A stretch of DNA of 64,000 nt from Burkholderiales bacterium (GCA_024235735.1 JACKLU010000009.1:24667-88666); one strand, 5' to 3'; counted from the stretch's first letter, positions 1-12,676 are shown. Notes: a model not told the origin generated them from the sequence alone. Made by a program: numbers and translations.

Positions 1-924
1 CAGCAGCGGTAACAGGAAAACATAGCCAATAACCGATATGGCGCCGGACAGAAGGCCGATTCCAAATGCGCCCGTCGGTGAAACGACATCGCATACCGAT
101 CCTATGCCGACACCGCCGGCCAGAGCGGCATTCGCCATATCCACCATCGATGTCTTGCCGCCATTCAGTTTGTAACTCAAAAAATAGGTCGCAATCGTTG
201 CACCAGACAGCGCCAGCAAAGTATTGGCAATCACTTGCGGCATGTCCTCAAGCGGCGATAGCGCTGTGGCGAAGCTTGGCCAGAAAAGCCACAGCACCAT
301 AGAGCCCAGCATCGCGAAACGATCCGATGTGGGATCCGATTCGATCGGTTTGCTGCGTTGATACTGTGTGGTCAGTACGATGGACATCGCCAGGCCGAAA
401 TAGGCGCCAAACGCATGAATGACGATCGATCCGGCCGTATCCTGGAAACCGTCGGTCAAACCGAGAGCATTATCCAGTACGATCCATTCATTGAGCAGAT
501 AAAGCGGCACCAATAAAAGCGCCAGCAGCGCATACTGAAATACGCGTAGCCGCCCAAGCACGGCGCCCATGGCGATTAAGGCGGCGGCCACTGACAGTTC
601 GGCAAATAAAATGGCATCGAGGGTATGCGGTGACAGTGCATGTCCGAAAATGCCGTTGGCGCGCAATAAAACATAGAGCGGCAATCCGGTTGCAACAACG
701 AGATAGGTGCCCGTCACCGCGCCAAAACCATAGCGGCGGACAAAAACCATCAAAAAGCCGAAACCGACCAGCAGCATGGCGAGAATATGAATGATGTAAT
801 TGTATTGCGCGACAGTGCGCGCCTCACTCATAACCGCTATCTCTTCAGCGCTGGCCCAGCAACTGAAGCTCAGCAAAAATAAACCCGCTGCACCCAGCAG
901 CATCAAGCTATGGCATTTTTTCAT
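1..924 (-). CDS. Rh50-type ammonia/ammonium (possibly CO2) channel, Amt/Rh family; 3' part runs off the left window edge
   Basis: Manual translation from ATG at 924 (absent from the ORF track because there is no stop in the window): MKKCHSLMLL...AQYNYIIHILAMLLVGFGFLMVFVRRYGF...IHAFGAYFGL...SDRFAMLGSMVLWLFWPSF...DMANAALAGGVGIGS. This closely resembles N. europaea Rh50 as recalled. Confidence 0.92.
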   Translation of the reverse strand, partial: MKKCHSLMLLGAAGLFLLSFSCWASAEEIAVMSEARTVAQYNYIIHILAMLLVGFGFLMVFVRRYGFGAVTGTYLVVATGLPLYVLLRANGIFGHALSPHTLDAILFAELSVAAALIAMGAVLGRLRVFQYALLALLLVPLYLLNEWIVLDNALGLTDGFQDTAGSIVIHAFGAYFGLAMSIVLTTQYQRSKPIESDPTSDRFAMLGSMVLWLFWPSFATALSPLEDMPQVIANTLLALSGATIATYFLSYKLNGGKTSMVDMANAALAGGVGIGSVCDVVSPTGAFGIGLLSGAISVIGYVFLLPLL

Positions 925-1549
925 ATGAATTTCCTTGTATTATCAACCTATAGATGCATCCTATAAGGTATTTCTTGAAAGAAAAATACTATTGCTGTTC
1001 TAACTCAAGCAATTCCTTGCCTGCGCGTCTGCCCTATCTAAGTCATCGTAGCGAGCCAGATGGGAAAAGCGGATACGGATTTTCTCGATTTTGCGGTGCA
1101 TCGCGAGATTAGTAGTAAAGAAGAAGTTTCGCGACGCAAAAATTGAGTAAATATAAACCGTTATCTCATTGGTGCAGTAGATGAGTCTTTAACCCGGCGG
1201 ACGCCTAGAGTCTGAACGCAATTTCCCATTTAAACAATAGGGTTATGCAAATTTGAAGAAAATAATTCTAGAGACATTTGTAGAATACCCACGCCATGGT
1301 TTCTAACGCATTGTTTTTAATATTCTGAAATTTCATAAATGCCACTGGAGCTGGTTCGCGTTGTTTTTCTGTTTGGACGCTACCAGCATCTAGTCAGTCG
1401 CCTGTTTTCGGGAAAATAATCGATTCGGGATTGAAATTTTATTCCTGGTATATCGGTGGCATGCGTGAACTGTTGCTGTAAGGATTTTTGCATGACATTG
1501 TGTGAGATCGGTGTGACGCAGTTGCTGCTGTTTCTTTCTGTCAGACTTT

Positions 1550-2872
1550 TCAATGTTTATGGTTGGTTTTTACTGCGATCGACTTATTGGAATGTGTATT
1601 GAATAATTGATAGAACTTAGGTTCGTTTGCTTGAACCAGCAGTTTGTAAAGATCCTGGTTGGTCAGTCCACGTTCAAGTTGTAGCAGTAAGGCGGCAAGG
1701 CCGGTAACATGAGCGGTGGCCATTGAATTGCCGGAAATGAAGTCGTAAGCGCCGTTGGGGAGCGTAGTAAGGATCTGTTCTCCAGGAGCCGGAACAGTCT
1801 GTGTATGGGTTTTATGGGATGTGCGAAACATGTGAGTGTGGCTTTGCACGCTGATGACACCCGGGTGGTGTGCCGGGAAGCCGGATTGGTTATCTTGCCG
1901 GTCAGTTTGAGAAGCGATGATAATGATGTCTTGTTGAATGGCTTTCTCGATCAGTCTGGCTAGAAGGGGATCGTGGGGTCCGGTTAAGCTTAAATTGATT
2001 AAGTCTACATTCATGTCTATGGCGGTGTTAAGCGCCAATGCCAAAGTAAAGCTGTTGCAGACTGCGTCGAGGCTACCTTCGGATATTTCCCAACAAGCTT
2101 TCATGGCAACGATACGACTGTCAGGCGCCAAGCCCACTATGCCCTGTCCATTGTTTGCTTTGGCGGCAATGATGCCGGCAATTGCCGTGCCATGCCCGTC
2201 ACTGAAAAAATCAACGGATTGATGGGTGACAAAATCCTTGATGACGTTAATCTGACCTTCCAAATCCGGATGTTTTATGTCTACGCCAGTATCAATAATT
2301 GCTATTGTTATATTTTTACCCGTTGCCTGATTGTGTATTTTTCCCAAATTGAACGGATGAATGCTTGATTGCAGCCGGTAATACGGGTCGCTGTATTCTT
2401 TACCCAGGACTTTAAACGTAGACATCAGCTGAACATTATCGATTCGGTTGTCATTGGATAATGCGGTGATGATTTCAGCGATTGACTGGTTTTCATTGAC
2501 CAGATAGACAACACAGTGTTCACCAATTTCACTGATCGACCACTGTGTAAGCAGTGTTAATTTGTAATCCGCCTCGATGTTGGCGGCAATTCTTTCGCTC
2601 CAGGACGAACTACCATAATCGCCCCTTTTGCGATAGGCATGATTAAATTGGCCGATAGGAATGCGATTGATGTGCTTGTCGGAATAGGTGACCAGAATAA
2701 TACGGTCAGTATAGTTGATATCAAATAGCAATGGATCGATTACCAAATCCTGCTTGGCGCTGACTGGCAACACCGAAGCGCCCAGAGTTACAAACAATAA
2801 CGTAATCAATAACAGCAATTTTTTTAAATGGGCTATTAACATAGCAGACTCATTCGGATGAAAGTGAGACAT
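1550..2872 (-). CDS. Secreted subtilisin-like (S8) serine peptidase with N-terminal propeptide
   Basis: Triad motifs IAIIDTG, HGTAIAG and SGNSMA (GTSMA variant); INLSL; hydrophobic signal peptide. The true start may be a few codons downstream. Confidence 0.9.
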   Translation of the reverse strand: MSHFHPNESAMLIAHLKKLLLLITLLFVTLGASVLPVSAKQDLVIDPLLFDINYTDRIILVTYSDKHINRIPIGQFNHAYRKRGDYGSSSWSERIAANIEADYKLTLLTQWSISEIGEHCVVYLVNENQSIAEIITALSNDNRIDNVQLMSTFKVLGKEYSDPYYRLQSSIHPFNLGKIHNQATGKNITIAIIDTGVDIKHPDLEGQINVIKDFVTHQSVDFFSDGHGTAIAGIIAAKANNGQGIVGLAPDSRIVAMKACWEISEGSLDAVCNSFTLALALNTAIDMNVDLINLSLTGPHDPLLARLIEKAIQQDIIIIASQTDRQDNQSGFPAHHPGVISVQSHTHMFRTSHKTHTQTVPAPGEQILTTLPNGAYDFISGNSMATAHVTGLAALLLQLERGLTNQDLYKLLVQANEPKFYQLFNTHSNKSIAVKTNHKH

Positions 2873-3554
2873 GCGCTAGTTCGGCAAAAATGACCTGCGC
2901 ATTGTTACGCAATGCACTAATGGCATCAGTTGTTTCCATAGCATATTTTTGTTCGCCATCTATGAGAATTTCATAAACACCGTTTTTGTATGGTCCATTT
3001 ACGATGTGACCGTAAACACTGCTTACGATAGTGTCGATTTGCGCCTTGTCCGTGTCATCTGTAAAAATCACTCGTATTAAGTTGGGTTTTTTACTTTTCT
3101 GAAGCGGTGCAGACGACTGAGCCAGAGTCCGGTATTCGTTTCCCGATAAGGTTTGTTCATGCATTGCATTGAATATAAATGTCGTTGTCATCAGCAGTAT
3201 GCAAAAAACCAGCGCGAAACTTTTTCTTGAAACTGGGAACTGAAAGAAAAGTTTCTGAAAATTATCGAGCTTTTTGCGAAAAAGCGCTAATTGAGAAACC
3301 GGCTGCGTTTCAATGCGCTTTTTCAGTTGATTAAACGACGCGTTGGACATTTGTTGCATCAGCTCTGCCTGCTGGATATTGTCGTAGACTTGGCGTTGCT
3401 GTTTTAATTCAATTCGGCACGTAATACATGTTTTGATGTGGCTCTCTACCCGTGCTTGTTCCGCAGCGCTCAGCGTTCGGTTGATGAACCAGGGCAAAAG
3501 ACTCCATACCGCACGATGTTCATGATTACTATTGATTTTGCTATTCACTGACAT
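2850..3554 (-). CDS. Membrane-anchored zinc-binding (ZAS/zf-HC2) anti-sigma factor with periplasmic C-terminal domain
   Basis: LLPWFIN...HIKTCITC (HxxxCxxC), a single TM helix, directly downstream of the ECF sigma gene. Confidence 0.85.
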   Translation of the reverse strand: MSVNSKINSNHEHRAVWSLLPWFINRTLSAAEQARVESHIKTCITCRIELKQQRQVYDNIQQAELMQQMSNASFNQLKKRIETQPVSQLALFRKKLDNFQKLFFQFPVSRKSFALVFCILLMTTTFIFNAMHEQTLSGNEYRTLAQSSAPLQKSKKPNLIRVIFTDDTDKAQIDTIVSSVYGHIVNGPYKNGVYEILIDGEQKYAMETTDAISALRNNAQVIFAELAHVSLSSE

Positions 3555-3569
3555 CTTTAGTTCCTGCCC

Positions 3570-4160
3570 TTAGTCTTCCTGAAGTGATTTTGCCAGAATT
3601 CTTCGAGCATGAAACATTCTGGTTTTTACGGTGTTTTCCGGACATTGCATAATTTCGGCGATTTCATTGTAGTGGAGGCCCTGAAAATAAGTCATTTCAA
3701 CGACTGCACGCTGCTCAGCCGACAACTGAGTGAATGCGACTTCCAGCCAGTTACTGGTTTCTACCTGAGAAATCCACTGCGTGCTTTTATCAGGAAAATA
3801 ATCCAGTTCATCATCAAATTCAACAGACCGGTCTTCATCCGCCATTGATTTCTCGACTCTTTTAAGCGCTTTGAAGTAAGCAATACCAAGTATCCAGGTT
3901 GACGGGCGGCATGTCTGGTCATAAGTTGAAGCTTTTTCCCAAACAACATACATGACATCATTAATAATTTCTTCGATATTGTTCCGCGTCCGCGTAATGC
4001 GAAAAATAAATTGAAACAATCGACTAAAATAAAGCTGATACAGTTGTTCGAATGCCTTTTCGTTTCCTGCAGCTGTTTCAGTAATTAACTGCTGCTCTCT
4101 TGCCCGCATCCTGGGTGAGGCATAAATACTTTCTTTATTATTTCCGGGCGATGTGGCCAT
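3570..4160 (-). CDS. ECF-type RNA polymerase sigma factor
   Basis: Region 2 (AFEQLY...EEIINDVMYVVW...STWILGIA) and region 4 (LSAEQRAVVEMTYFQGLHYNEIAEIMQCPENTVKTRMFHARR). Confidence 0.93.
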   Translation of the reverse strand: MATSPGNNKESIYASPRMRAREQQLITETAAGNEKAFEQLYQLYFSRLFQFIFRITRTRNNIEEIINDVMYVVWEKASTYDQTCRPSTWILGIAYFKALKRVEKSMADEDRSVEFDDELDYFPDKSTQWISQVETSNWLEVAFTQLSAEQRAVVEMTYFQGLHYNEIAEIMQCPENTVKTRMFHARRILAKSLQED

Positions 4161-4251
4161 GATTCATTTTTATTGAGACGCTGTCATTTTGGTTGCACAT
4201 ACCCGTTAATTCCAGGGCGTAATATAAATAGTTCAATGCATAGCAAAAAAA

Positions 4252-4989
4252 TTAGATTCCAAAAGTGATCGAGAACAGTATGCGATTACCGACCGCATCA
4301 GGTTCGAATTGCCAATCCAGGGAGGTGATTTGTTCTGAAGCGGCGTGAGCAGAGCCGTAGTAACGTAAATCGATGCCTATATTGGGCGAAAAGTGTATGG
4401 TAAATCCTGAAGCCCAATAGACATAGTCATAATGCAGATTCTTTTTTTGTTTGTTGTAACCCAAAGTACTTGAAAATTCGATGGAATCGGTAATGGGGTA
4501 TCGTCCGGTCATTTCATAACTGAATGACATATGTTTCTGATTATAACCATTTTCAGAAAAAGCGAGGCCCAATGTCAGCAAATCGCGAAAGTGCGTCACG
4601 AAATAAAATTCGTTGTAATCAGCCTGTCTGCCAAAAATGTTTCCATTATAAATATAACGATTCCATTCGAGGTTAAATCGCCAGTCTCTGGCTATTCGAT
4701 ATGCGTAACCAAAGTAAGGCCTAAATTCCAGTTTTGAGCGGTTTCCGAAGTCATGATCGGCAAAGTTAACTGAGGATAAAAAGGATCCTAGATAAAAACC
4801 GGTTTTGAATTCGTAATCAATATTGGCTTGAATGGATGGTTTTTTATCGCTTTTAGTATAGCCACGCCAGAAATAATCAGTTGTTCCCGTCAAGCTTGCA
4901 TTTAATTCGGCATGGCAGATGGCTGTGCTAAAGAGTAGTGGTGCGCAAAATAATAGCAGCTGTGCCAAATTGATGAAGGACATTTTCAT
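4252..4989 (-). CDS. TorF/TIGR02001-like outer-membrane beta-barrel (putative porin)
   Basis: Signal peptide; TTDYFWRGYT...PSIQANIDY...GFYLGS..S.V signature; alternating beta-strand pattern; C-terminal FSITFGI. Confidence 0.8.
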   Translation of the reverse strand: MKMSFINLAQLLLFCAPLLFSTAICHAELNASLTGTTDYFWRGYTKSDKKPSIQANIDYEFKTGFYLGSFLSSVNFADHDFGNRSKLEFRPYFGYAYRIARDWRFNLEWNRYIYNGNIFGRQADYNEFYFVTHFRDLLTLGLAFSENGYNQKHMSFSYEMTGRYPITDSIEFSSTLGYNKQKKNLHYDYVYWASGFTIHFSPNIGIDLRYYGSAHAASEQITSLDWQFEPDAVGNRILFSITFGI

Positions 4990-5482
4990 TTAGCAAAGAC
5001 ATCGAAAGGAAGCTTAAACAACAAGCAGATATGGATAAACACTCTGCCAGTATTGATTCTGAGCAATTACGCGCAAAAAAATGATTTATGAACCATGGAC
5101 TTGGATTTGTGGGTGAAAAATTTTTCATTATAGAACAGAAATTAAATAACTTAAATGTACTTCGATACAGTACTTCGATACAAATAATGAAAAACGACAG
5201 AAGTTAATGAGAACTATTATATATTTTGAACCTTTTGGCAGATTAACCGGATATACCGTATGTTAAAGGTACACATGTGTATAGGTACTTGTAATCGAGA
5301 GATGAAATAAATCTTTGAATTTATTGCCTTAACTAATTATTAAGAAAATCAATTATTTCGTTCAGTAATGCACTTATCAAATTATTGTTTGCAAGTTGAA
5401 GTGATTGACAACTTTTCGGTTACAAATTGACTGGGCCGTTTTAGTGCTTTTACCGGTACGGTTTCTAAATAAGAGAAATGAT

Positions 5483-7291
5483 ATGAAAAAATTATTAATC
5501 ATGATTGTTTTGATGGTTCTTCCGGGGTTTGTCTGGGCTAAAGGGGGCGATCGGCGGATCACTTTTGAATTAAACGACGGACCGGGTAACTGGTATAGAA
5601 ATGCAAATGGCCCGGTAGCCGGATTGGGTTCGCTTGCCGTAGGTACGCCGGGTGTTGAAGTTGTTTTCACAAGAGACGACTCCAATACCGTGCATACTTA
5701 TACCAGCCTGCTTTATCCGACTGGTGCTAGAAATATGCCTTTTGATACCGATCCCCAAAAAGGCAGTGAAAGTATCACGTTAAGGACGCCTGGCTTGTAT
5801 GTCTTTTTCTGTCAGGTGCATCCCTACATGCTCGGCGCAGTGATCGTGGATGATCCGAATACCAAAGGTCTCGACCTCGGTGAAACGATTACGTTGATTA
5901 ATGGCATTACCGTGCCTACCAGCAGCGATCTGGCAACACGCCTGCTGCGTGGTTTTATGGTATTGACCGAGCCGGGTAACTGGCAAAATTTCTCCTCTTC
6001 CGATCCATGGCATATTAATTATCCAAGTGTTCCTGTACGCATTACGGGGGGCGCAGTGATTGATCTCGCTAGCGTGCTAGAAGCCCGCTATGGCAACGAT
6101 ACTGCATTGCCATCGCTGCTGACTCCTCCACCGGGTGTAGGCGAAGTCTGGGTAAACACGCAATTTGAGAAAACTGCCAACAAACGCAAGCCGGGAGCGG
6201 CTGCTGTAGTTGATGCAACAACCTGGCAAGTAAAACGCAAGGTTTTCTTGCCGGATATCGAGATGAACAATCCGCACAATATGTGGACCGACCGCGATCA
6301 AAACCTCATTTATGTCACGGAATGGTTTGACAGCAAACTGACGATATTTGACCGAGTGTCCGGGCAGCTTATTGACCGGCTTCAGGTTGGAGAAGCACCG
6401 GCGCATGTCATGACGCGTGTAGATACCGATCAACTGCATGTTTCTATCAACGGTTCAGACGGGAATGAATCGGTCGTCGAGTTGTCACCGCTTGCTGGCG
6501 GCATTGAACGACGCATTGACGTCGGTCGGCCTGGTCCGCATGCGCATTGGATGGGACATGATGGCGGCACTATGGTAACCCCTAACGTATTTACCGGAGA
6601 CTCAACCATTTATGACTTCGTGCGAGATGGTATTCAGGATATCGTTCCAACCGGTAGCGATGAAGCGCATCCTATCGCAACGGGGATGATGCCCGATTCC
6701 AGTAAATATTACGTTGCCAACTTTCTGGATAGTACATTCACCGTTATTGAAACCGCAACAGGAAAGGTTTTAAAAACTATCAACCTGTTACAGAACTATG
6801 ATCCTGTTAGTGGCGCGATAACTGGGCCCGTTGGCGGTTTGCCGATTCAAACCCCGGTCAGTCCGGATGGCATTGCCATGGTAACGGCAAATATTTTGAC
6901 CGATACCATAACTATTGTGGATACCAAAACGGATACGCTGGTAGCTTCACTGTCTTGTGACGCCGGGTGTCATGGTGTGCAATTTGGCGCCAAGAAAGGC
7001 GGCGGCTATTATGCCTATGTCAGCAGTCAATCAGCCAATGTGTTGCAAGTAGTCGATATCGATCCTAACGGTGACGGCAATCCGAATGACGCTAAAGTCG
7101 TCGGCAGAATTTTGCTGACATCGGTTTCAAACACTGCGTCAGATGACAGGATTACGGCGCATGATGGGATGGGGGGTCAGGGGTTGTTGCCTATTCCGGT
7201 GGTATATAACGGCTGGGTGCAGAATCTGCCGAAAAGCTGGAAAGACCAATTAACACCTCAGCAGCGTGATCCATTAAATTCATCAAAATAG
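5483..7291 (+). CDS. Secreted protein: N-terminal type-1 copper cupredoxin domain plus YVTN/YncE-like beta-propeller
   Basis: ATG at 5483 after AAGAGA, signal peptide MKKLLIMIVLMVLPGFVWA. T1 Cu ligands VHT...CQVHPYM. Propeller repeats (YVANFLDSTFTVIE, VTANILTDTITIVD) with His at blade starts. Confidence 0.82.
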   Translation: MKKLLIMIVLMVLPGFVWAKGGDRRITFELNDGPGNWYRNANGPVAGLGSLAVGTPGVEVVFTRDDSNTVHTYTSLLYPTGARNMPFDTDPQKGSESITLRTPGLYVFFCQVHPYMLGAVIVDDPNTKGLDLGETITLINGITVPTSSDLATRLLRGFMVLTEPGNWQNFSSSDPWHINYPSVPVRITGGAVIDLASVLEARYGNDTALPSLLTPPPGVGEVWVNTQFEKTANKRKPGAAAVVDATTWQVKRKVFLPDIEMNNPHNMWTDRDQNLIYVTEWFDSKLTIFDRVSGQLIDRLQVGEAPAHVMTRVDTDQLHVSINGSDGNESVVELSPLAGGIERRIDVGRPGPHAHWMGHDGGTMVTPNVFTGDSTIYDFVRDGIQDIVPTGSDEAHPIATGMMPDSSKYYVANFLDSTFTVIETATGKVLKTINLLQNYDPVSGAITGPVGGLPIQTPVSPDGIAMVTANILTDTITIVDTKTDTLVASLSCDAGCHGVQFGAKKGGGYYAYVSSQSANVLQVVDIDPNGDGNPNDAKVVGRILLTSVSNTASDDRITAHDGMGGQGLLPIPVVYNGWVQNLPKSWKDQLTPQQRDPLNSSK

Positions 7292-7408
7292 TTTTTTGTT
7301 AACCAGTTTTCATCCATGAACATAACTCTATAAATTAATTGTGATAATTCATGAAAATAGATGAGAATTCCAGTGGAAAGGTATGCAATTGTAGCCAAGA
7401 CAGTGATT

Positions 7409-7452
7409 GGTTCATCCGGCAAGTGCGTACTTGCCGGATGAACCGATTTTTT
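7409..7452 (+). terminator. Rho-independent terminator-like hairpin downstream of the cupredoxin gene
   Basis: Perfect 16-bp stem GGTTCATCCGGCAAGT-gcgt-ACTTGCCGGATGAACC followed by GATTTTTT. Confidence 0.7.
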
Positions 7453-7508
7453 GTTGAGATACTGGCGATGGACATCGGAGGAACTGGCCTTTCATTTGAT
7501 GGATTAGT

Positions 7509-7804
7509 CACTGCTGTCCCGCTAATTTTCCTATCAAAACAAAGTTGGTTGGTTATCATATTCGTATTGACTAGTAGGTGGATCGCCTCGCAGCAGTGTC
7601 ATGAGATCACGTTTTTCAAACAGATTGAGCTGCAATAACCGTATTATCTGCTGCATGCTGATCTGAATCGTTGACTGGAATTTGATGAACGCGATCAGTA
7701 AATAGACGCACAATGCGATCCAGATTTGCGTCATGACGGCATTTTTGCTGGTTCCGACAAATGATTTGATTTTAAGGTTCTGTTTGATCCATTTGAAGAA
7801 CATA
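7509..7804 (-). mobile_element. IS4-family transposase 3' remnant with its terminal inverted repeat
   Basis: FFKWIKQNLKIKSFVGTSKNAVMTQIWIALCVYLL is typical of an IS4 C-terminus. End sequence TTAGCGGGACAGCAGTG finishes at 7509. The 5' part is missing. Confidence 0.8.
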
Positions 7805-8563
7805 TCGAAGAAACCGAACAGCGCATCGCACGATTCGACCAGCATTTGCTCACTGGATTGGAAAGCGAACGCAACTGGCTGGTGTTATTACAAACCTTAC
7901 TCGGCATTGATCTCATCGGTGCAGCCATGTTATTAGTAGAAATTGGCAACGATATGGATGCCTTTGGCAGCGCGGATCGTCTGGCTTCCTGGGTCGGCAT
8001 CTGCCCAATAACGAATCGGCAGGCAAACATAAATCCGGATGAACACGAAAAGGCGACAGGTATGTCCGTCGTCTTCTGTGTGAGTTTGTTCATGCCGCCA
8101 GCCGAGCCACTTCTGCATTCAAGGCAAAGTTCCAGTCACTCATCGTGCGGCGTGGGTACAAACGATCCATCATCGCACTACTGGGATACAAAATACTGCG
8201 TACCATTTTCTTCGAGACCTTTGCACGGCTACTGCGCGGCACGATAATCGCGTTAAAAATTTGCGAAAAATGCTCATTTACCCCGTGTAAACTCCGCTTT
8301 TTCGCAAATTTTTGCCTTATTCTCGCACCGCTCATGACACCGTGCAAAGGTCTCTCTTCATGTTCAAGCGGCGCGAATATTACCGGGACAGCGCCACTGA
8401 CTACGAGAAGATTTCTGTTCAGCGTAATGCCGCACGCTGGATAAAGACGCTGATTCGGCACGGTTTAATCAAACCAGCCCAAGTCTGATTAAATGCCAAT
8501 TCTAATATGACCTTGACTGGTCAGGATTATACTCGCCTGATTGGCTGTTTCTTTCACGTTAAA
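7805..8563 (+). pseudogene. IS110-family recombinase/transposase C-terminal remnant, frameshifted and interrupted by a MITE
   Basis: LLQTLLGIDLIGAAMLLVEIGNDMDAFGSADRLASWVGICP, then after a frameshift RRLLCEFVHAASR...RRGYKRSIIA, and after the MITE YRDSATDYEKISVQRNAPRWIKTL. The right-end position is approximate. Confidence 0.8.
8214..8354. mobile_element. 141-bp MITE, copy 1
   Basis: 15-bp perfect TIR GAGACCTTTGCACGG/CCGTGCAAAGGTCTC; 5-bp TSD TCTTC (8209-8213, 8355-8359); near-identical copy at 25101-25241. Confidence 0.92.
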
Positions 8564-8796
8564 TTTGCACTTATTTATACGAATCCGCTTGGTGTGTTCT
8601 GGGATGATTCAAAAGAAGGGAAGAACGGAAGATTAAAATGCTGTTAGAACGTTCTCGGATGCGGGCGGGTTGCACTGAGTTAACACTGATTTCAGTACAA
8701 CCCTGTTTTATGAAGATTCAACACTCTTTTTCCAATGATAAAAGGATTTCATTACAAGAAGTTGCAATTAGAGGATTTTTTTCTCGAGAGAAACGA

Positions 8797-8961
8797 TCAG
8801 TAATTTCCGATTATTTCCCGTCGAATATCCTTGTCGTCAAAATAGCTGTCATCATCGGCACATTCCATTTCGTCGATAATTCTCGCCACACGACTATCCT
8901 CGAAAAGATCTTCAACAACACAATCGTCATCAAACTTGTCAAAAGAAAATTCAATTTTCAT
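8797..8961 (-). CDS. 54-aa highly acidic small protein of unknown function
   Basis: AAGGAGG SD before ATG at 8961. MKIEFSFDKFDDDCVVEDLFEDSRVARIIDEMECADDDSYFDDKDIRREIIGNY (19 D/E). A candidate promoter lies upstream. Confidence 0.65.
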   Translation of the reverse strand: MKIEFSFDKFDDDCVVEDLFEDSRVARIIDEMECADDDSYFDDKDIRREIIGNY

Positions 8962-9002
8962 TTTAAACACCTCCTTGATTAAACTGGGCAAATCTATTAG
9001 AC

Positions 9003-9052
9003 ATCAATTAGCGTATCTGTAAAAGCGAAGAAAGTCAGTGATTTATCCCACA
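9003..9052 (-). promoter_or_regulatory. Candidate class II CRP-type promoter for the small acidic gene
   Basis: AGTGA-tttatc-CCACA at 9037-9052 (2 mismatches to TGTGA-N6-TCACA), centred 41.5 nt upstream of the TSS (9003) implied by -10 TACGCT (9015-9010, minus strand). Confidence 0.5.
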
Positions 9053-9239
9053 ATTCCCTTTTTGGGTGTGCAAGTAATTCTTTCTGGGAAGGAAACTGTC
9101 GTTTCCTGCGCTGTCCTGTCGGGTCGTCAGATTCACTTATTTCAGGAAAATCAATCCTATGCTAGTATTTAACCTAAACTGGGAATCCAGGTTTAAGGAT
9201 CTGGCCAATACATGAATAATAATCTGGGGAGAGCAATGG

Positions 9240-9962
9240 ATGCCTACACTGCGCCAAATTCCAATTGACCGGGCATGTGCGATGCTTTCGGCCATAAAGG
9301 AATTTCACGACCTGTCCGCTTCTGATCTGGAAGAGATCGCCAGGCAGTGCAGCTGGTATCGTTATGAAGAAAACGAAGAAATTGTACATTTTCAGGATAA
9401 ATCGAACAGTGTCTTTTTTATTGCTCAGGGCGACATAAGAGTCACTTATCATGCGTTATCCGGGCATGAAGTCATTCTGTGCGATCTGACAACCGGAGAA
9501 ATGTTTGGCGAATTAACCGCAATCGACGGAAAGTCCCGCTCGGCGACAGTCATCGCCAGAAACAGCGTACTGCTGGCCTCCCTGACAGCTATTGATTTCA
9601 AAAATGTTATCTATGCCAGCCGTCAGGTGGCCGAGGCCATACTCAAACGGCTTGCGAGTGAAGTGCGCCGATTAACAGAGCGCGTTTACGATTTCAGCAC
9701 ACTCGCTGTCAGCAACCGCATACAGGCTGAACTGTTGCGTCTGGCGAAAAACCATATGACGGGCCCCAATGTTGCGGTTGTCTCTCCTTCTCCGACACAC
9801 TTTGATATCGCCAATCTGGTCAGCACGCACCGCGAGGCCGTAACGCGAGAACTCAGCAATCTGGCCCGCAACAACCTGATTTTGCGGAAAGGGCATGATC
9901 TGCACATTCTGGATGTGGCAAGACTGACGGATATGGTCAATCTGGTGCGCGGCAGTAGTTGA
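9240..9962 (+). CDS. Crp/Fnr-family transcription regulator (CRP-like)
   Basis: cNMP pocket FGELTAIDGKSRSAT; HTH with CRP-type recognition helix THREAVTRELS; no FNR Fe-S cysteine cluster. Confidence 0.9.
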   Translation: MPTLRQIPIDRACAMLSAIKEFHDLSASDLEEIARQCSWYRYEENEEIVHFQDKSNSVFFIAQGDIRVTYHALSGHEVILCDLTTGEMFGELTAIDGKSRSATVIARNSVLLASLTAIDFKNVIYASRQVAEAILKRLASEVRRLTERVYDFSTLAVSNRIQAELLRLAKNHMTGPNVAVVSPSPTHFDIANLVSTHREAVTRELSNLARNNLILRKGHDLHILDVARLTDMVNLVRGSS

Positions 9963-10439
9963 GTAAACCCGGGTTGCCGGCGCGTGCACTCGATGTACAG
10001 ACGATTTTTTCTCTGTTTTTATACCTTTCGCAGGTTCCGGGCAGAATTTTCCAGTTCTTCCTTGTTCATCGCCCCATTCCTATTCTTCGGTTAAACAATT
10101 AATTCGAATGGTGAATCACACGATGGTATTTAGGATTAAGGGATCTGGCTGATTTACAATAAACCCCGTTCAGCGAATGTTAGGCGATGGTAGTTCGAGA
10201 GGGCTAAAGTCGACACGTGCATAGCCAAGCGGCATTGACCATGTCAACCGGTTCAAAGCAGCTTTCCAGTTTTTTATCGGCATTACCCAGTTTCTGGAAG
10301 CTTCTTGAATTGCCGGAAAAATGATTTTTTTGGTGTGATCTGAAGTGTTCTGGTCTTCATGGAATCCGCAGTTTCATAAAATTAATCAATGAAATTGAGG
10401 ACGAAAGATGGAGAAATTACCCCGTACAGGATGTAACCA

Positions 10440-11108: not shown

Positions 11109-12239
11109 TTATCCGTAAACATCTTCATTGAACTGACATTGTATTCGTTCGATCTCGGCGCGATGTTCGATGAGTGCGTTGACGCAGTCGACATCGAGTT
11201 TTTCTCCGGCTAATTGTCTGAGTGTGTCGAAGGCCCGATCGTTGCTCCAGGCTTCCTTGTATGGTCGGCGTGAAGTCAGCGCGTCGAAGATATCGGCGAC
11301 TGCCACAATGCGTGCTTCAAGCGGAATATCGTGATTGATTTTGCCGCACGGATAGCCACTGCCGTTGACTGCTTCGTGGTGGAATTCGGCAATGTTTCTC
11401 AGGATATCGATATGCGCAATACCGTCCAGGCTGAAGTTTGCGACGATTTCATCGATCATTTCCCGGCCTCTGCGCGCATGCGTGTTCATGATTTTTCGTT
11501 CTGACGCACTCAGTGGCCCCGGTTTTAACAGAATACTGTCCGGAATGGCGATCTTACCGATGTCATGCAGCGGCGAAAACATAAAAACATATTCGATATA
11601 CTCATCGTTAAGCTGATATTGTCTGGCCAGCGATTGCGCTATCAACCGGCTGTATCGCGACATGCGATCCAAATGGCTGCCTGTTTCGGGGTCACGCAGA
11701 TGGGTGATCTTTCCGGTAGTTTTCAATGCGGCGTTCATCACATGAATGGTGGACAATTCACTGATGACCATCAGCGCGATCAGATGGCCAAAAACATCAA
11801 GTTCTCTGAGCGCTTTTTCGGTAAACACATTGGTTTGGTACGAATTGAAGAAAAGAAACCCGATAAATTCGCCCCCGTGAAACATCGGCATGGTATAACT
11901 GGCGGCATAGCCTTGGCGACCGATGCGCTTGGTATGTTCCTGGTTGCCTTGCTCAAAAGTAATCAGGTTATTGACAACGCGGGGGCGCTTTTTTTCCAGT
12001 ATTTCCTTTAGCGACCTCGCCTGATTCAGCGGTATTTGGTAGTTATTCAATGGATTGTCTTCACCGCTGCTGTCGATATAAGTTCTTAGAACATGGGTTT
12101 GTGAATCGAATAACGTCACGGCAATGCGTGCTACAAAATCAAGATTCTGTTGAATAACCCGATGCGCGCTGACAAGCTTGTCTTTCAACGGCAAATGGCT
12201 GTTTAAATCTTCCAGTGCATCTCTATGATTAAACATCAT
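11109..12239 (-). CDS. GAF + HD-GYP domain protein (cyclic-dinucleotide phosphodiesterase-like)
   Basis: ETGSHLDRM, LHDIGK, HHE..NGSGYP, ARIVAVADIFDALTSRRPYK; N-terminal GAF. Start placed at MMFNH (12239); the ORF track extends to 12410. Confidence 0.88.
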   Translation of the reverse strand: MMFNHRDALEDLNSHLPLKDKLVSAHRVIQQNLDFVARIAVTLFDSQTHVLRTYIDSSGEDNPLNNYQIPLNQARSLKEILEKKRPRVVNNLITFEQGNQEHTKRIGRQGYAASYTMPMFHGGEFIGFLFFNSYQTNVFTEKALRELDVFGHLIALMVISELSTIHVMNAALKTTGKITHLRDPETGSHLDRMSRYSRLIAQSLARQYQLNDEYIEYVFMFSPLHDIGKIAIPDSILLKPGPLSASERKIMNTHARRGREMIDEIVANFSLDGIAHIDILRNIAEFHHEAVNGSGYPCGKINHDIPLEARIVAVADIFDALTSRRPYKEAWSNDRAFDTLRQLAGEKLDVDCVNALIEHRAEIERIQCQFNEDVYG

Positions 12240-12676
12240 CGGAATAATCGCTTGTATTTGGAAAGGCGGTGGTTTGAACAGTCCTGTCCAGATTAGCTTT
12301 CTCAATACAGAAAAAAGAGCACCCTTGAAAACAAAGGTGCCTGATTTTAGGGGAGAAATGAGCAGGTTGGAGTCCAAGGGAGTAAAGACCACAAGCTGCT
12401 TGACTGCCATTGTACCGCTAATACTGATATACGATTGCTCGAATAATCATCGGTTTGCATGCCATTTCTGGGGATCGGGGTGTATGCTGTGCGCTGCGTG
12501 TAAGAAATCGTAGTCTGGACCTTGTATTAGAGCTATTGCTTGTCTGCCGTTTTCTGGTCGCGCTTGAGTTCGAGCTGTAGACAAGGAATAATGCAATCTC
12601 GGTAGAGAAAGAGCTGATCAGCGGTTTATGGGAGCAATCGAAATCTTAACGCAGGTGGAAAAGAGAGAGCAATGAA

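Follow-up and report, generated by a model that had tools for sequence, protein, structure and literature searches.

Pairs of extracytoplasmic function (ECF) sigma factors and anti-sigma factors are a well-known signaling principle. In the sigma-E/RseA/DegS-RseP system of Escherichia coli, a single-pass anti-sigma factor and a periplasmic serine protease are combined with positive autoregulation and outer-membrane-protein biology, and DegP is an output of the system. In the mycobacterial SigK-RskA pair (ECF19-type), the anti-sigma factor begins with a zinc finger, and the regulon is made up of secreted proteins. In the SigX cluster of Pseudomonas aeruginosa (ECF102: SigX, CfrX, CmpX, and OprF), the sigma factor gene lies near genes for a putative anti-sigma factor and a porin that is thought to be regulatory (PMC7826278).

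We analyzed a stretch of 64,000 nucleotides from a Burkholderiales bacterium (here called the window). As predicted from its genes, a cassette within it resembles the sigma-E system in having an ECF sigma factor, a single-pass anti-sigma factor, a periplasmic serine protease, positive autoregulation, and a tie to outer-membrane-protein biology. In contrast to sigma-E, the protease is of the S8 type (subtilisin fold) instead of S1/PDZ, its gene is part of the operon, and the first gene of the operon codes for an outer-membrane barrel. Equivalents of RseB and RseC are absent, and the anti-sigma factor is a ZAS-type zinc-finger protein with a small alpha/beta periplasmic domain. The clustering of ECF sigma, anti-sigma, and outer-membrane porin genes likens the cassette to the SigX cluster by gene content; it differs in lacking a mechanosensitive channel, in a porin of the TorF/Gcw_chp family in place of the OmpA-like OprF, and in the presence of the S8 protease. 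Among NCBIfam families, SigK ranked second in similarity to the sigma factor (E = 4.7e-29). The factor is not a SigK member, because its 101 bits are far under the cut-off of 226, and phylum, partners, and motif differ as well. The main text of the ECF reclassification paper contains no S8-linked group, and no description of a cassette that always includes an S8 protease and a TorF-type barrel was found in the searchable literature.

A four-gene cassette and a copper-propeller gene

The first-pass annotation had described five genes in a divergent layout, and all five open reading frames and their family assignments were confirmed (Table 1).

Table 1. Coordinates of the cassette, the copper-propeller gene, and flanking features in the window
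Feature	Position	Strand	Basis or remark
Rh50/Amt ammonium-channel gene	1 to ~1010	-	Left neighbor, chromosomal
S8 protease	1550-2872	-	Peptidase_S8; last gene of cassette operon
Anti-sigma factor	2850-3554	-	zf-HC2
ECF sigma factor	3570-4160	-	TIGR02937
Predicted autoregulatory ECF-type promoter	4236-4203	-	TTGAACTATTT-N12-GGAATTAACGG; motif alignment
TorF/Gcw_chp-family putative porin	4252-4989	-	TIGR02001; first gene of cassette
Predicted outward ECF-type promoter	5226-5258	+	TTGAACCTTTT-N11-CGGATATACCG; PWM
Predicted 5' leader of copper-protein mRNA, AT-rich	5259-5482	+	Between motif and ATG
Copper-propeller protein, 602 aa	5483-7291	+	N-terminal cupredoxin and YVTN/YncE-type propeller
Intrinsic terminator (stem-loop 7405-7448 and T-run)	7405-7452	+	Stem and fold z-score
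IS4-family fragment	~7534-7845	-	Boundary feature, outside system
IS110 Transposase_20 fragment	7846-8247	+	Boundary feature, outside system

The order and content of the cassette (porin, ECF sigma factor, anti-sigma factor, and S8 protease) were identical in all 17 cassette loci, 7 of which were found via the copper protein and 10 via the protease. The porin scored well above the cut-offs of TIGR02001 (100.9 bits; cut-off, 47.15) and Gcw_chp (58.8 bits; cut-off, 24) and begins with a signal-like sequence; it is a putative outer-membrane beta-barrel of the TorF/Gcw_chp family. The sigma factor contains only the sigma-2 and sigma-4 regions (Sigma70_r2, Sigma70_r4_2, and Sigma70_ECF), scored 68.9 bits against TIGR02937 (cut-off, 42.9), and is classified by these profiles as an ECF (group 4) sigma factor. 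The profile scores did not place it in a named ECF subgroup (such as SigK, SigW, or PRK12515); the best match, PRK12515, reached 123 bits compared to a cut-off of 236.

The anti-sigma gene starts 16 nt past the sigma stop codon. Its product matched zf-HC2 (25.8 bits; cut-off, 22.2; E = 1.2e-5), and its N-terminal HxxxCxxC zinc motif is invariant in all 17 cassette orthologs. A transmembrane helix (residues ~110 to 133) is followed by a small periplasmic domain (residues ~157 to 228), for which an AlphaFold model (pLDDT, about 85 to 90) displayed a beta-alpha-beta-beta-alpha-beta arrangement. Judged by these features, the protein is a class I (ZAS-type) single-pass anti-sigma factor with a predicted cytoplasmic zinc-finger domain that binds the sigma factor.

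The product of the last cassette gene matched Pfam Peptidase_S8 (E = 2.3e-38). The triad D194/H227/S383 and the oxyanion residue N293 are invariant in 17/17 cassette orthologs and keep the family order, and a signal-like hydrophobic segment could be read at the N-terminus. The protein is thus predicted to be a periplasmic subtilisin-family serine protease with intact catalytic motifs; membership in the Mycosin family was rejected (162.7 bits; cut-off, 278.75). As annotated, the start of the protease gene and the end of the anti-sigma gene share 23 nt, and Met11 (ATG at 2842) constitutes an alternative start.

The divergent gene encodes a secreted protein in which an N-terminal cupredoxin precedes a 7-bladed YVTN-type beta-propeller. 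In agreement with the N-termini of homologs, it starts at the ATG at 5483 and not at the TTG at 5405. The N-terminal domain matched a pseudoazurin profile (E = 1.8e-4), is all-beta in the structure model, and carries the ligands H71/C110/H113/M116 (C-x2-H-x2-M), which are invariant among 14 sequences from four phyla. Profile, ligands, and model together identify it as a type-1 (blue) copper cupredoxin whose predicted copper site is complete. Seven invariant histidines are located in the linker and propeller. The database label "copper oxidase / multicopper oxidase type 1" has to be corrected. Multicopper oxidases are defined by at least two cupredoxin domains, the HxH motif of the trinuclear site, and Pfam Cu-oxidase domains; this protein has one cupredoxin domain, the remainder is propeller, and no Cu-oxidase family matched at E ≤ 0.01.

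Like nitrous-oxide reductase (NosZ, including the lactonase-type clade III), the copper protein unites a 7-bladed propeller with seven conserved histidines and a cupredoxin in one secreted polypeptide. Unlike NosZ, it displays the reversed domain order and type-1 instead of CuA ligands, and nosDFYL are absent nearby; no nos genes were found in 80 copper-protein neighborhoods. The L-NosZ match was weak (E = 2.8e-5), and its 22.9 bits, compared to a cut-off of 700, led us to reject NosZ or L-NosZ identity. Foldseek searches with the model retrieved nothing beyond generic 7-bladed propellers, a two-domain analog not being among them, and a literature search on the copper protein and its DUF neighbors yielded nothing relevant. 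Across GTDB species-representative genomes, 460 matched stretches encode relatives, and identities of 60 to 70% were observed across Nitrosomonas, Nitrosococcus, Nitrospira, Acidobacteriota, Chloroflexota, and even Nitrososphaera. The family is highly conserved and uncharacterized, without a solved or named relative. Elsewhere in the window, a Crp/Fnr regulator was the only one of its usual neighbor genes.

Two predicted promoters of the cassette sigma factor

Alignment of the porin-sigma spacers of seven loci revealed a bipartite motif, TTGAACyTTTT-N11-GGAATAWACSG (type TTGAAC-N16/17-GGAATAWAC). These seven loci then proved to have the same motif in the divergent spacer as well, on the opposite strand. 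Its -10-like half, GGAATAWAC, differs from the textbook ECF -10 element. The sigma-upstream site lies between the porin and sigma genes, beginning 76 nt ahead of the sigma start codon, and all 10 held-out cassettes have it in the corresponding position (21.7 to 31.9 bits). The outward site faces away from the porin, ends 225 nt before the copper-protein ATG, and scored 31.2 bits with the full position weight matrix (PWM). Another PWM was trained on the seven sigma-upstream sites only, and 1.31 Mb was scanned on both strands. The outward site of the window scored 20.0 bits compared to 18.1 bits for the best background site, and the top ranks were occupied by 28 cassette-associated sites, among them the two sites of every Nitrosomonas cassette that had been held out (L081 and L085 to L088). 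Both sites were detected in 16 of the 17 cassettes, and the outward site (at least 18 bits and at most 500 nt from the porin start) always pointed away from the porin. We infer that the motif is the promoter used by the cassette sigma factor. Induction of the porin by the sigma factor, as suggested in the first-pass annotation, is not borne out, since none of the 17 cassettes has a motif in the porin direction (best score, ≤12.8 bits, equal to background; window maximum, 1.1 bits). Nitrospira clusters likewise carry ECF genes near the copper protein; a consistent GAAC-type motif was not found in them.

The strong terminator that had been reported to close the block was confirmed: a perfect 20-bp stem carries a loop of 4 nt and is followed by a T-run (local fold z-score, -5.5). 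It is predicted to close the copper-protein transcript. The leader had no Rfam match. In activated-sludge metatranscriptomes, one contig (3913 to 4494) bridges porin and sigma factor, and another (5308 to 5732), of uncertain strand and RNA origin, covers the copper-protein leader. Contigs cover both transcription units; they are low-depth and unstranded, may include DNA, and give neither transcript starts nor strand.

We consider it reasonably probable that the locus comprises a conserved four-gene envelope-signaling cassette of Nitrosomonas with two sigma-dependent promoters and an interchangeable outward cargo. In the resting state, the anti-sigma factor would tether the sigma factor to the membrane. 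In response to an envelope signal, the periplasmic part of the anti-sigma factor would be proteolyzed, with the first cut most plausibly made by the S8 protease of the same operon, and the freed sigma factor would raise expression of its own operon and of the copper protein. The promoter between porin and sigma factor would provide positive autoregulation of the sigma factor, anti-sigma factor, and protease. The outward promoter would transcribe whatever cargo is present, here the secreted cupredoxin-propeller protein, and this transcript would end at the hairpin. The protease role, the nature of the signal, and the copper-protein chemistry are the parts of this scheme that we infer. We regard the cargo as interchangeable because, in about half of the cassettes, what lies in front of the outward promoter is either unrelated genes or ~1 kb of DNA devoid of genes. 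No conserved RNA or small open reading frame was found in the gene-free DNA past the outward promoters, where the promoter segment alone is common.

The predicted promoter pair is directly testable with a reporter. The cargo matters more than the cassette, given the conservation of the copper protein, its complete predicted type-1 site, and its seven invariant histidines. Envelope-stress-type sigma control in some Nitrosomonas would offer a practical route to induce the protein and find its substrate.

Role of the S8 protease

The protease gene lies directly downstream of the anti-sigma gene in 17/17 cassettes, and the periplasmic domain of the anti-sigma factor weakly resembles subtilase prodomains by fold. 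Both observations argue against the alternative that the protease is a DegP-like output of the regulon, serving periplasmic quality control or processing, and not the initiator of anti-sigma degradation. We regard this alternative as possible, if the less probable one: the protease is the last gene of an autoregulated operon and would therefore rise after induction, and S8 proteases are not known as established site-1 proteases of anti-sigma factors.

The model of the periplasmic domain retrieved the prodomains of subtilisin, Tk-subtilisin, furin, and PC1/3 at ranks 2 to 39, with target-normalized TM scores of 0.62 to 0.71 (isolated prodomain chains) and rmsd values of 2.0 to 5.2 Å. These matches are weak (E, 0.008 to 0.1), and RRM, ACT, and EF-1-beta folds score alike. 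Pfam Inhibitor I9 did not match the domain, hhalign gave a probability of 6%, and a PDB profile search was without matches. The domain shares the strand and helix order of the subtilisin propeptide (Inhibitor I9), and its gene adjoins that of the S8 protease; in contrast to the propeptide, it is joined to the anti-sigma factor and not to the protease. A joint reading, which we put forward as an improbable speculation, holds that the domain mimics a subtilase prodomain, that the co-encoded protease docks there in the way it docks on its own propeptide and, once a signal arrives, degrades the domain, and that the output at this locus is a new kind of secreted copper enzyme. If true, the cassette would represent a new way to degrade anti-sigma factors under regulation, in which the S8 protease is the first cutter and the tethered prodomain the sensor or bait. 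The output in this lineage would be an enzyme combining type-1 copper with a histidine-rich propeller, which might act on a nitrogen oxide because the family is found in ammonia oxidizers, Nitrospira, and Nitrososphaera.

Linkage of the copper-propeller gene to the cassette

The motif faces the copper-propeller gene in all seven linked loci found via the copper protein. In a further Nitrosomonas locus (L032), which has no cassette within 8 kb on each side, a 24- to 28-bit site is located 60 nt before the first possible copper-protein start codon. On the basis of this common motif, the copper-propeller gene is probably under the control of the sigma factor, in line with the first-pass annotation. 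Mere adjacency, in which a rearrangement placed an independently regulated copper gene beside a cassette motif that plays no part in copper-protein expression, appears unlikely to us. It would explain why cassettes that lack the copper protein also have the outward motif and why the leader is long (225 nt in the window; as much as ~930 nt in L036, where another gene intervenes), and it would fit the IS activity that is frequent around cassettes (L085, L089, and the window). However, the L032 motif adjoins a copper gene in the absence of a cassette, and the window clade has neither a terminator nor an opposing gene between motif and ATG. Moreover, the linkage persists between cassettes whose proteases and anti-sigma factors are ~62% and ~42% identical, respectively, and the protease tree shows it on at least three branches.

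The first-pass annotation went further and regarded the five genes as one self-contained, mobile, inducible module in which the sigma factor induces enzyme and porin and the protease processes or senses them. The five-gene block recurs in 8 loci, including the window, and nucleotide homology to the closest long relative (L002) spans exactly this block (1549 to 7310), leaving the terminator outside. However, of 60 copper-propeller loci whose upstream sequence was long enough, only 6 had the cassette, and the copper-propeller gene adjoined only 1 of the 10 protease-anchored loci, all of which contained the intact cassette. Most copper-propeller genes lack both cassette and motif, including the N. 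marina/Nm51 copies, which are 82% identical, and each of the 20 "class B" Nitrosomonas loci. The strong five-gene claim fails because copper-propeller homologs are usually unlinked to the cassette, the very outcome that its authors had named as speaking against it. The cassette protease is conserved even if the copper protein is missing or, as in N. ureae, JL21, and N. supralitoralis, has its gene elsewhere in the genome, which also argues against a protease acting specifically on the copper enzyme.

Mobility fared no better. The reported IS debris does abut the block, as IS4 and IS110 fragments, but on the right side only; the left neighbor is not an IS element. No flanking or terminal repeats were found around the block, its GC content (40 to 49%) is within the range of the window (46 ± 3.5%), and Rfam and tRNA scans of positions 1 to 10000 gave no matches, with no tRNA near the block. 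A composite transposon or mobile island was rejected on these grounds, and together with the missing porin-direction motif, the findings make the five-gene module very improbable. The conserved unit is the four-gene cassette, and the five genes are a lineage-specific pairing in this wastewater Nitrosomonas.

QhpE matures quinohemoprotein amine dehydrogenase, and a comparable role of the S8 protease as dedicated maturation protease of the copper protein, suggested by a weak NCBIfam match and the closeness of the two genes in the window, is highly improbable given the score (74.1 bits, far under the cut-off of 165), the 9/10 protease-anchored cassettes without an adjacent copper protein, and the lack of a nearby S8 gene at most copper-protein loci.

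The cargo of other cassettes (L002, L036, L044, L056, and L090) overlaps the usual neighbors of the copper protein, namely, fam96 (a small protein), fam3, fam27 (P-loop), a DUF5666 protein, and an outer-membrane barrel. The IS fragments (7534 to 8247) occupy the position at which relatives encode further cargo genes: a P-loop protein, a DUF5666 protein, and an outer-membrane barrel in L002 and fam3 in L036, L044, and L056.

Gene content of the locus

The closest relatives of the window's proteins belonged to Nitrosomonas and to metagenome-assembled genomes (MAGs) named "Burkholderiales," and the DNA runs containing the stretch were sludge or wastewater metagenomes; the host is a Nitrosomonas from wastewater or activated sludge. 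All five open reading frames, the hairpin, and the insertion sequence (IS) debris of the first-pass annotation were found as described. Porin, ECF sigma factor, anti-sigma factor, and S8 protease genes make up a cassette that is divergent from the copper-protein gene, and an ammonium channel gene directly adjoins its protease end.

Features of the locus and predicted promoter elements
Feature	Position	Strand	Remarks
Rh50/Amt-type ammonium channel gene	1-1010	-	Pfam Ammonium_transp, E=5.8e-41; runs off left window end
S8 protease	1550-2872	-	Profile match
Anti-sigma factor	2850-3554	-	zf-HC2
ECF sigma factor	3570-4160	-	TIGR02937, over its cut-off
Predicted sigma-proximal element	4236-4203	-	Porin-sigma spacer
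TorF/Gcw_chp putative porin	4252-4989	-	TIGR02001, 100.9 bits (cut-off, 47)
Predicted outward element	5226-5258	+	Ends 225 nt before ATG at 5483
Secreted copper protein, 602 aa	5483-7291	+	N-terminal cupredoxin and 7-bladed YVTN-type propeller
Perfect 20-bp hairpin and T-run	7405-7448		3' of copper-protein gene
IS4-family fragment, then IS110-family fragment	Beyond hairpin

A GAF and HD-GYP-type (HD_5) protein encoded at 11109-12410(-), probably a cyclic-di-GMP phosphodiesterase, showed no connection to the cassette or the copper protein.

The conserved unit comprises four genes

Synteny was examined from two sides, that of the copper protein and that of the protease. Relatives of the copper protein were encoded in 460 stretches of species-representative genomes, and the best 80 of these loci (L numbers designate loci fetched via either protein) were examined. 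Upstream sequence reached 4.4 kb or more in 60 of them, and the cassette was linked in 6 of these 60; L001, L002, L036, L044, L054, and L056, all Nitrosomonas-type, carried the other four genes in the same order and in divergent orientation. On the protease side, porin, sigma, anti-sigma, and protease genes kept this order at the loci of all ten orthologues (46 to 80% identity), and the copper protein was the divergent neighbor at one of the ten (L089). The cassette of four is therefore the conserved unit; different loci place different neighbors beside it, the copper protein among them. Both are present in, for example, N. ureae, JL21, N. supralitoralis, and Nm84; they lie on separate contigs in the last three, and in N. 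ureae each is outside the flanks fetched around the other. Copper-linked cassettes fell on at least three branches of the protease and sigma trees, a scatter that would fit either an old, repeatedly broken linkage or repeated capture. In L089, whose cassette is 80% identical, the copper-propeller frame (gene 237-2008, minus strand) shifts near residue 482, so that the gene is a pseudogene or the 7x long-read assembly is wrong at this point; the protease there has DDE, Y1, and IstB transposase genes as neighbors.

Apart from matches of chance size, 1550-7452 has neither direct nor inverted repeats at its flanks, and no tRNA was found near this block. The GC content of the genes (40 to 49%) is ordinary for the window (46 ± 3.5%), and the IS fragments are confined to one side. 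The first-pass annotation had proposed one self-contained, mobile five-gene system; homologues of the copper protein are mostly unlinked to the ECF/S8 trio, and neither the unity nor the mobility of the system was borne out.

A predicted promoter pair may connect the sigma factor with the copper-protein gene

When the porin-sigma spacers (approximately 90 nt) of the seven linked loci were aligned, a bipartite element, TTGAACyaTTT-N11/12-GGAATAWACGG, was found to be conserved within otherwise diverged sequence, beginning 49 to 79 nt upstream of the sigma start codon. A GAAC-containing upstream half and a spacing of 16 to 17 nt are expected for an ECF -35/-10 pair. The same element was present on the opposite strand of the divergent spacer, facing the copper-protein gene, in 7/7 linked loci. 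To escape circularity, a weight matrix was built from the seven sigma-upstream sites alone, and 1.31 Mb (all fetched loci and the whole window) was scanned on both strands. The 28 best matches were all cassette associated and included, at 21.7 to 31.9 bits, the autoregulatory and outward sites (those facing away from the porin) of the held-out Nitrosomonas cassettes L081 and L085 to L088. The window's outward site reached 20.0 bits, compared to 18.1 bits for the best unrelated match anywhere in the 1.31 Mb. In 16 of 17 cassettes, the 500 nt preceding the porin contained an outward-facing site scoring 18 bits or more; the exception was the Methylobacter cassette. Toward the porin, the highest score did not exceed 12.8 bits in any of the 17; thus, the porin lacks a promoter of the ECF-motif type.

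A site of 24 to 28 bits was also located 60 nt before the first possible copper-protein start codon of Nitrosomonas sp. UBA6494 (L032), where no cassette was found within the 8-kb flanks on each side. As a motif match, it independently supports a predicted functional link NEVERTHELESS between the cassette sigma factor and the copper-protein gene. Activated-sludge metatranscriptome contigs cover parts of both units, with 3913-4494 spanning the porin-sigma junction and 5308-5732 the copper-protein leader; since these contigs are of low depth and unstranded, they indicate only probable expression. The third-best match in the window, 7784-7816(+) within the IS4 fragment (17 to 21 bits), is probably due to chance, as shuffled sequence reaches the same range. 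Two sigma-70-like hexamer pairs at 5352-5411(-) point toward the porin from within the predicted copper-protein leader; if they are used, the porin and copper-protein transcripts would overlap head to head.

The locus is thus an ECF signaling cassette whose constant partners are unusual and whose layout is predicted to include two promoters, and in the window's lineage it is predicted from its motifs to be wired to an uncharacterized copper protein. What stands of the earlier interpretation is this predicted connection from sigma factor to copper enzyme; the accompanying induction of the porin falls away with the five-gene unit and mobility. Such a cassette is ordinary in principle. Its predicted promoters lend themselves to direct testing, and the biochemistry of the cargo family merits attention.

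The cargo of the outward promoter varies

Genes behind the outward promoter differ from cassette to cassette. L036, L044, and L056 carry a small secreted protein (family fam96) followed by the copper protein and fam3, while L090 has fam96, fam3, and the P-loop protein fam27 without the copper protein. The cargo of L002 consists of the copper protein, fam27, a DUF5666 protein, and an outer-membrane barrel; that of L088 consists of an alpha/beta-hydrolase-like protein, a fam27-like protein, and an ABC protein; and that of L087 is an SH3 lipoprotein. About 1 kb of gene-free DNA follows in L091, in L092, and in L081 (N. ureae), where it precedes a GH42-like secreted protein; these stretches have only the promoter segment in common. 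In L085, an IS (DUF772/DDE gene) is inserted downstream of the promoter. L085 and L091 are two versions of one cassette locus (99.8% identity across approximately 890 nt), with L091 being free of the IS gene. Where the copper protein occurs without the cassette, members of fam3, fam27, the DUF5666 proteins, and the barrel are again its usual neighbors; the cassette has therefore been tied repeatedly to a gene set rather than to a single gene. Behind the copper protein, the window carries the terminator and IS debris; its homology to L002 ends at 7310, and a search across the 64 kb found none of the other cargo genes. IS elements recur around cassettes (window, L085, and L089), which can account for the shuffling of cargo.

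Predicted signaling mechanism

The anti-sigma factor has an invariant HxxxCxxC sigma-binding motif, one transmembrane helix (residues ~110 to 133), and a periplasmic domain of about 70 residues, modeled as beta-alpha-beta-beta-alpha-beta at a pLDDT of ~85 to 90. The S8 protease, whose gene follows that of the anti-sigma factor in every cassette, has a signal-like N terminus and an invariant triad. The simplest account follows the standard ECF scheme, in which a periplasmic event would lead to proteolysis of the anti-sigma factor and release of the sigma factor, which would then amplify its own operon via the internal promoter and fire the outward one. The S8 protease may itself initiate this degradation, or it may be no more than a product of the induction. 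One weak lead toward the former is that the anti-sigma model resembles subtilase prodomains: Foldseek placed those of subtilisin E, BPN', Tk-subtilisin, furin, and PC1/3 at ranks 2, 3, 4, 6, 8, 11, 15, 17, 30, 37, and 39, with target-normalized TM-scores of 0.62 to 0.71 for those that are isolated prodomain chains and an overall rmsd of 2.0 to 5.2 Å. However, E values were only 0.008 to 0.1, the fold is a common one (RRM, ACT, and EF-1-beta were interleaved among the matches), and sequence tests were negative. We regard it as unlikely that the modeled domain serves as a "prodomain bait" for the protease. The leading porin, not sigma dependent by motif, may take part in sensing, purely by analogy with OprF, which has been proposed to be part of sensing with SigX (PMC7826278).

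The copper protein and its other neighborhoods

The N-terminal ~130 residues of the copper protein contain invariant type-1 ligands (H71, C110, H113, and M116) and match pseudoazurin (E=1.8e-4); seven further histidines are invariant outside the cupredoxin (H177, H265, H308, H319, H353, H355, and H497). Conservation is very strong, with 60 to 70% identity among Betaproteobacteria, Gammaproteobacteria, Nitrospira, Acidobacteriota, Chloroflexota, and Nitrososphaera, and 79% in the gammaproteobacterium Nitrosococcus halophilus. The proteins of the Nitrososphaera MAGs L060 (8001-9758) and L061 (4441-6204) are ~63% identical to the bacterial one, which in archaeal ammonia oxidizers implies transfer between domains. 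Searches for solved relatives gave generic propellers only, and no Cu-oxidase domain lies behind the database names "copper oxidase" and "multicopper oxidase type 1." The nearest concept is NosZ, which combines a propeller bearing a seven-histidine copper cluster with a cupredoxin, but tests for membership in the NosZ family failed. We infer that the protein is a secreted redox enzyme in which the type-1 copper transfers electrons and histidines of the propeller bind a metal.

Copper-protein loci lacking the cassette have different neighborhoods, each internally conserved. Those of the Nitrosomonas ureae/oligotropha type contain DUF6502, a DUF5666 protein, an outer-membrane barrel, and, downstream, the small acidic fam3. 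A Crp/Fnr-family regulator (fam38) marks their far edge in N. ureae-type genomes; the window's regulator at 9240-9962(+), 68% identical to fam38 in L025, L029, L037, L040, and L047, may be left over from an older neighborhood that was once shared and was then rearranged by the IS elements. Nitrospira loci combine radical-SAM/SPASM, DUF547, and glycosyltransferase genes with the copper protein, DUF5666, a Phenol_MetA_deg-type barrel, and an ECF sigma factor with a CBM48-bearing anti-sigma factor; no common promoter motif was found in these clusters. In L010, L013, L015, L017, L027, L055, and others, the copper-propeller gene lies within a long codirectional cluster that also holds a histidine kinase, a GT2 gene, and an ECF sigma factor, the CBM48-linked one being a second. 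In Candidatus Angelobacter (L038, L041, L052, L059, L062, L068, and L069), the gene of an H-NOX (HNOB, E=3e-36) plus V4R protein lies immediately downstream and convergent, which may point to the sensing of NO or O2 in the vicinity of the enzyme. Together with the frequency of the protein in nitrifiers, this neighbor hints, speculatively, at nitrogen-oxide chemistry. Two copper-propeller genes occur in tandem in Nitrosomonas sp. Nm33 (L005, 2633-4369 and following), and two copies lie approximately 3 kb apart in the Nitrospira locus L067 (8001-9794 and 12802-14844).
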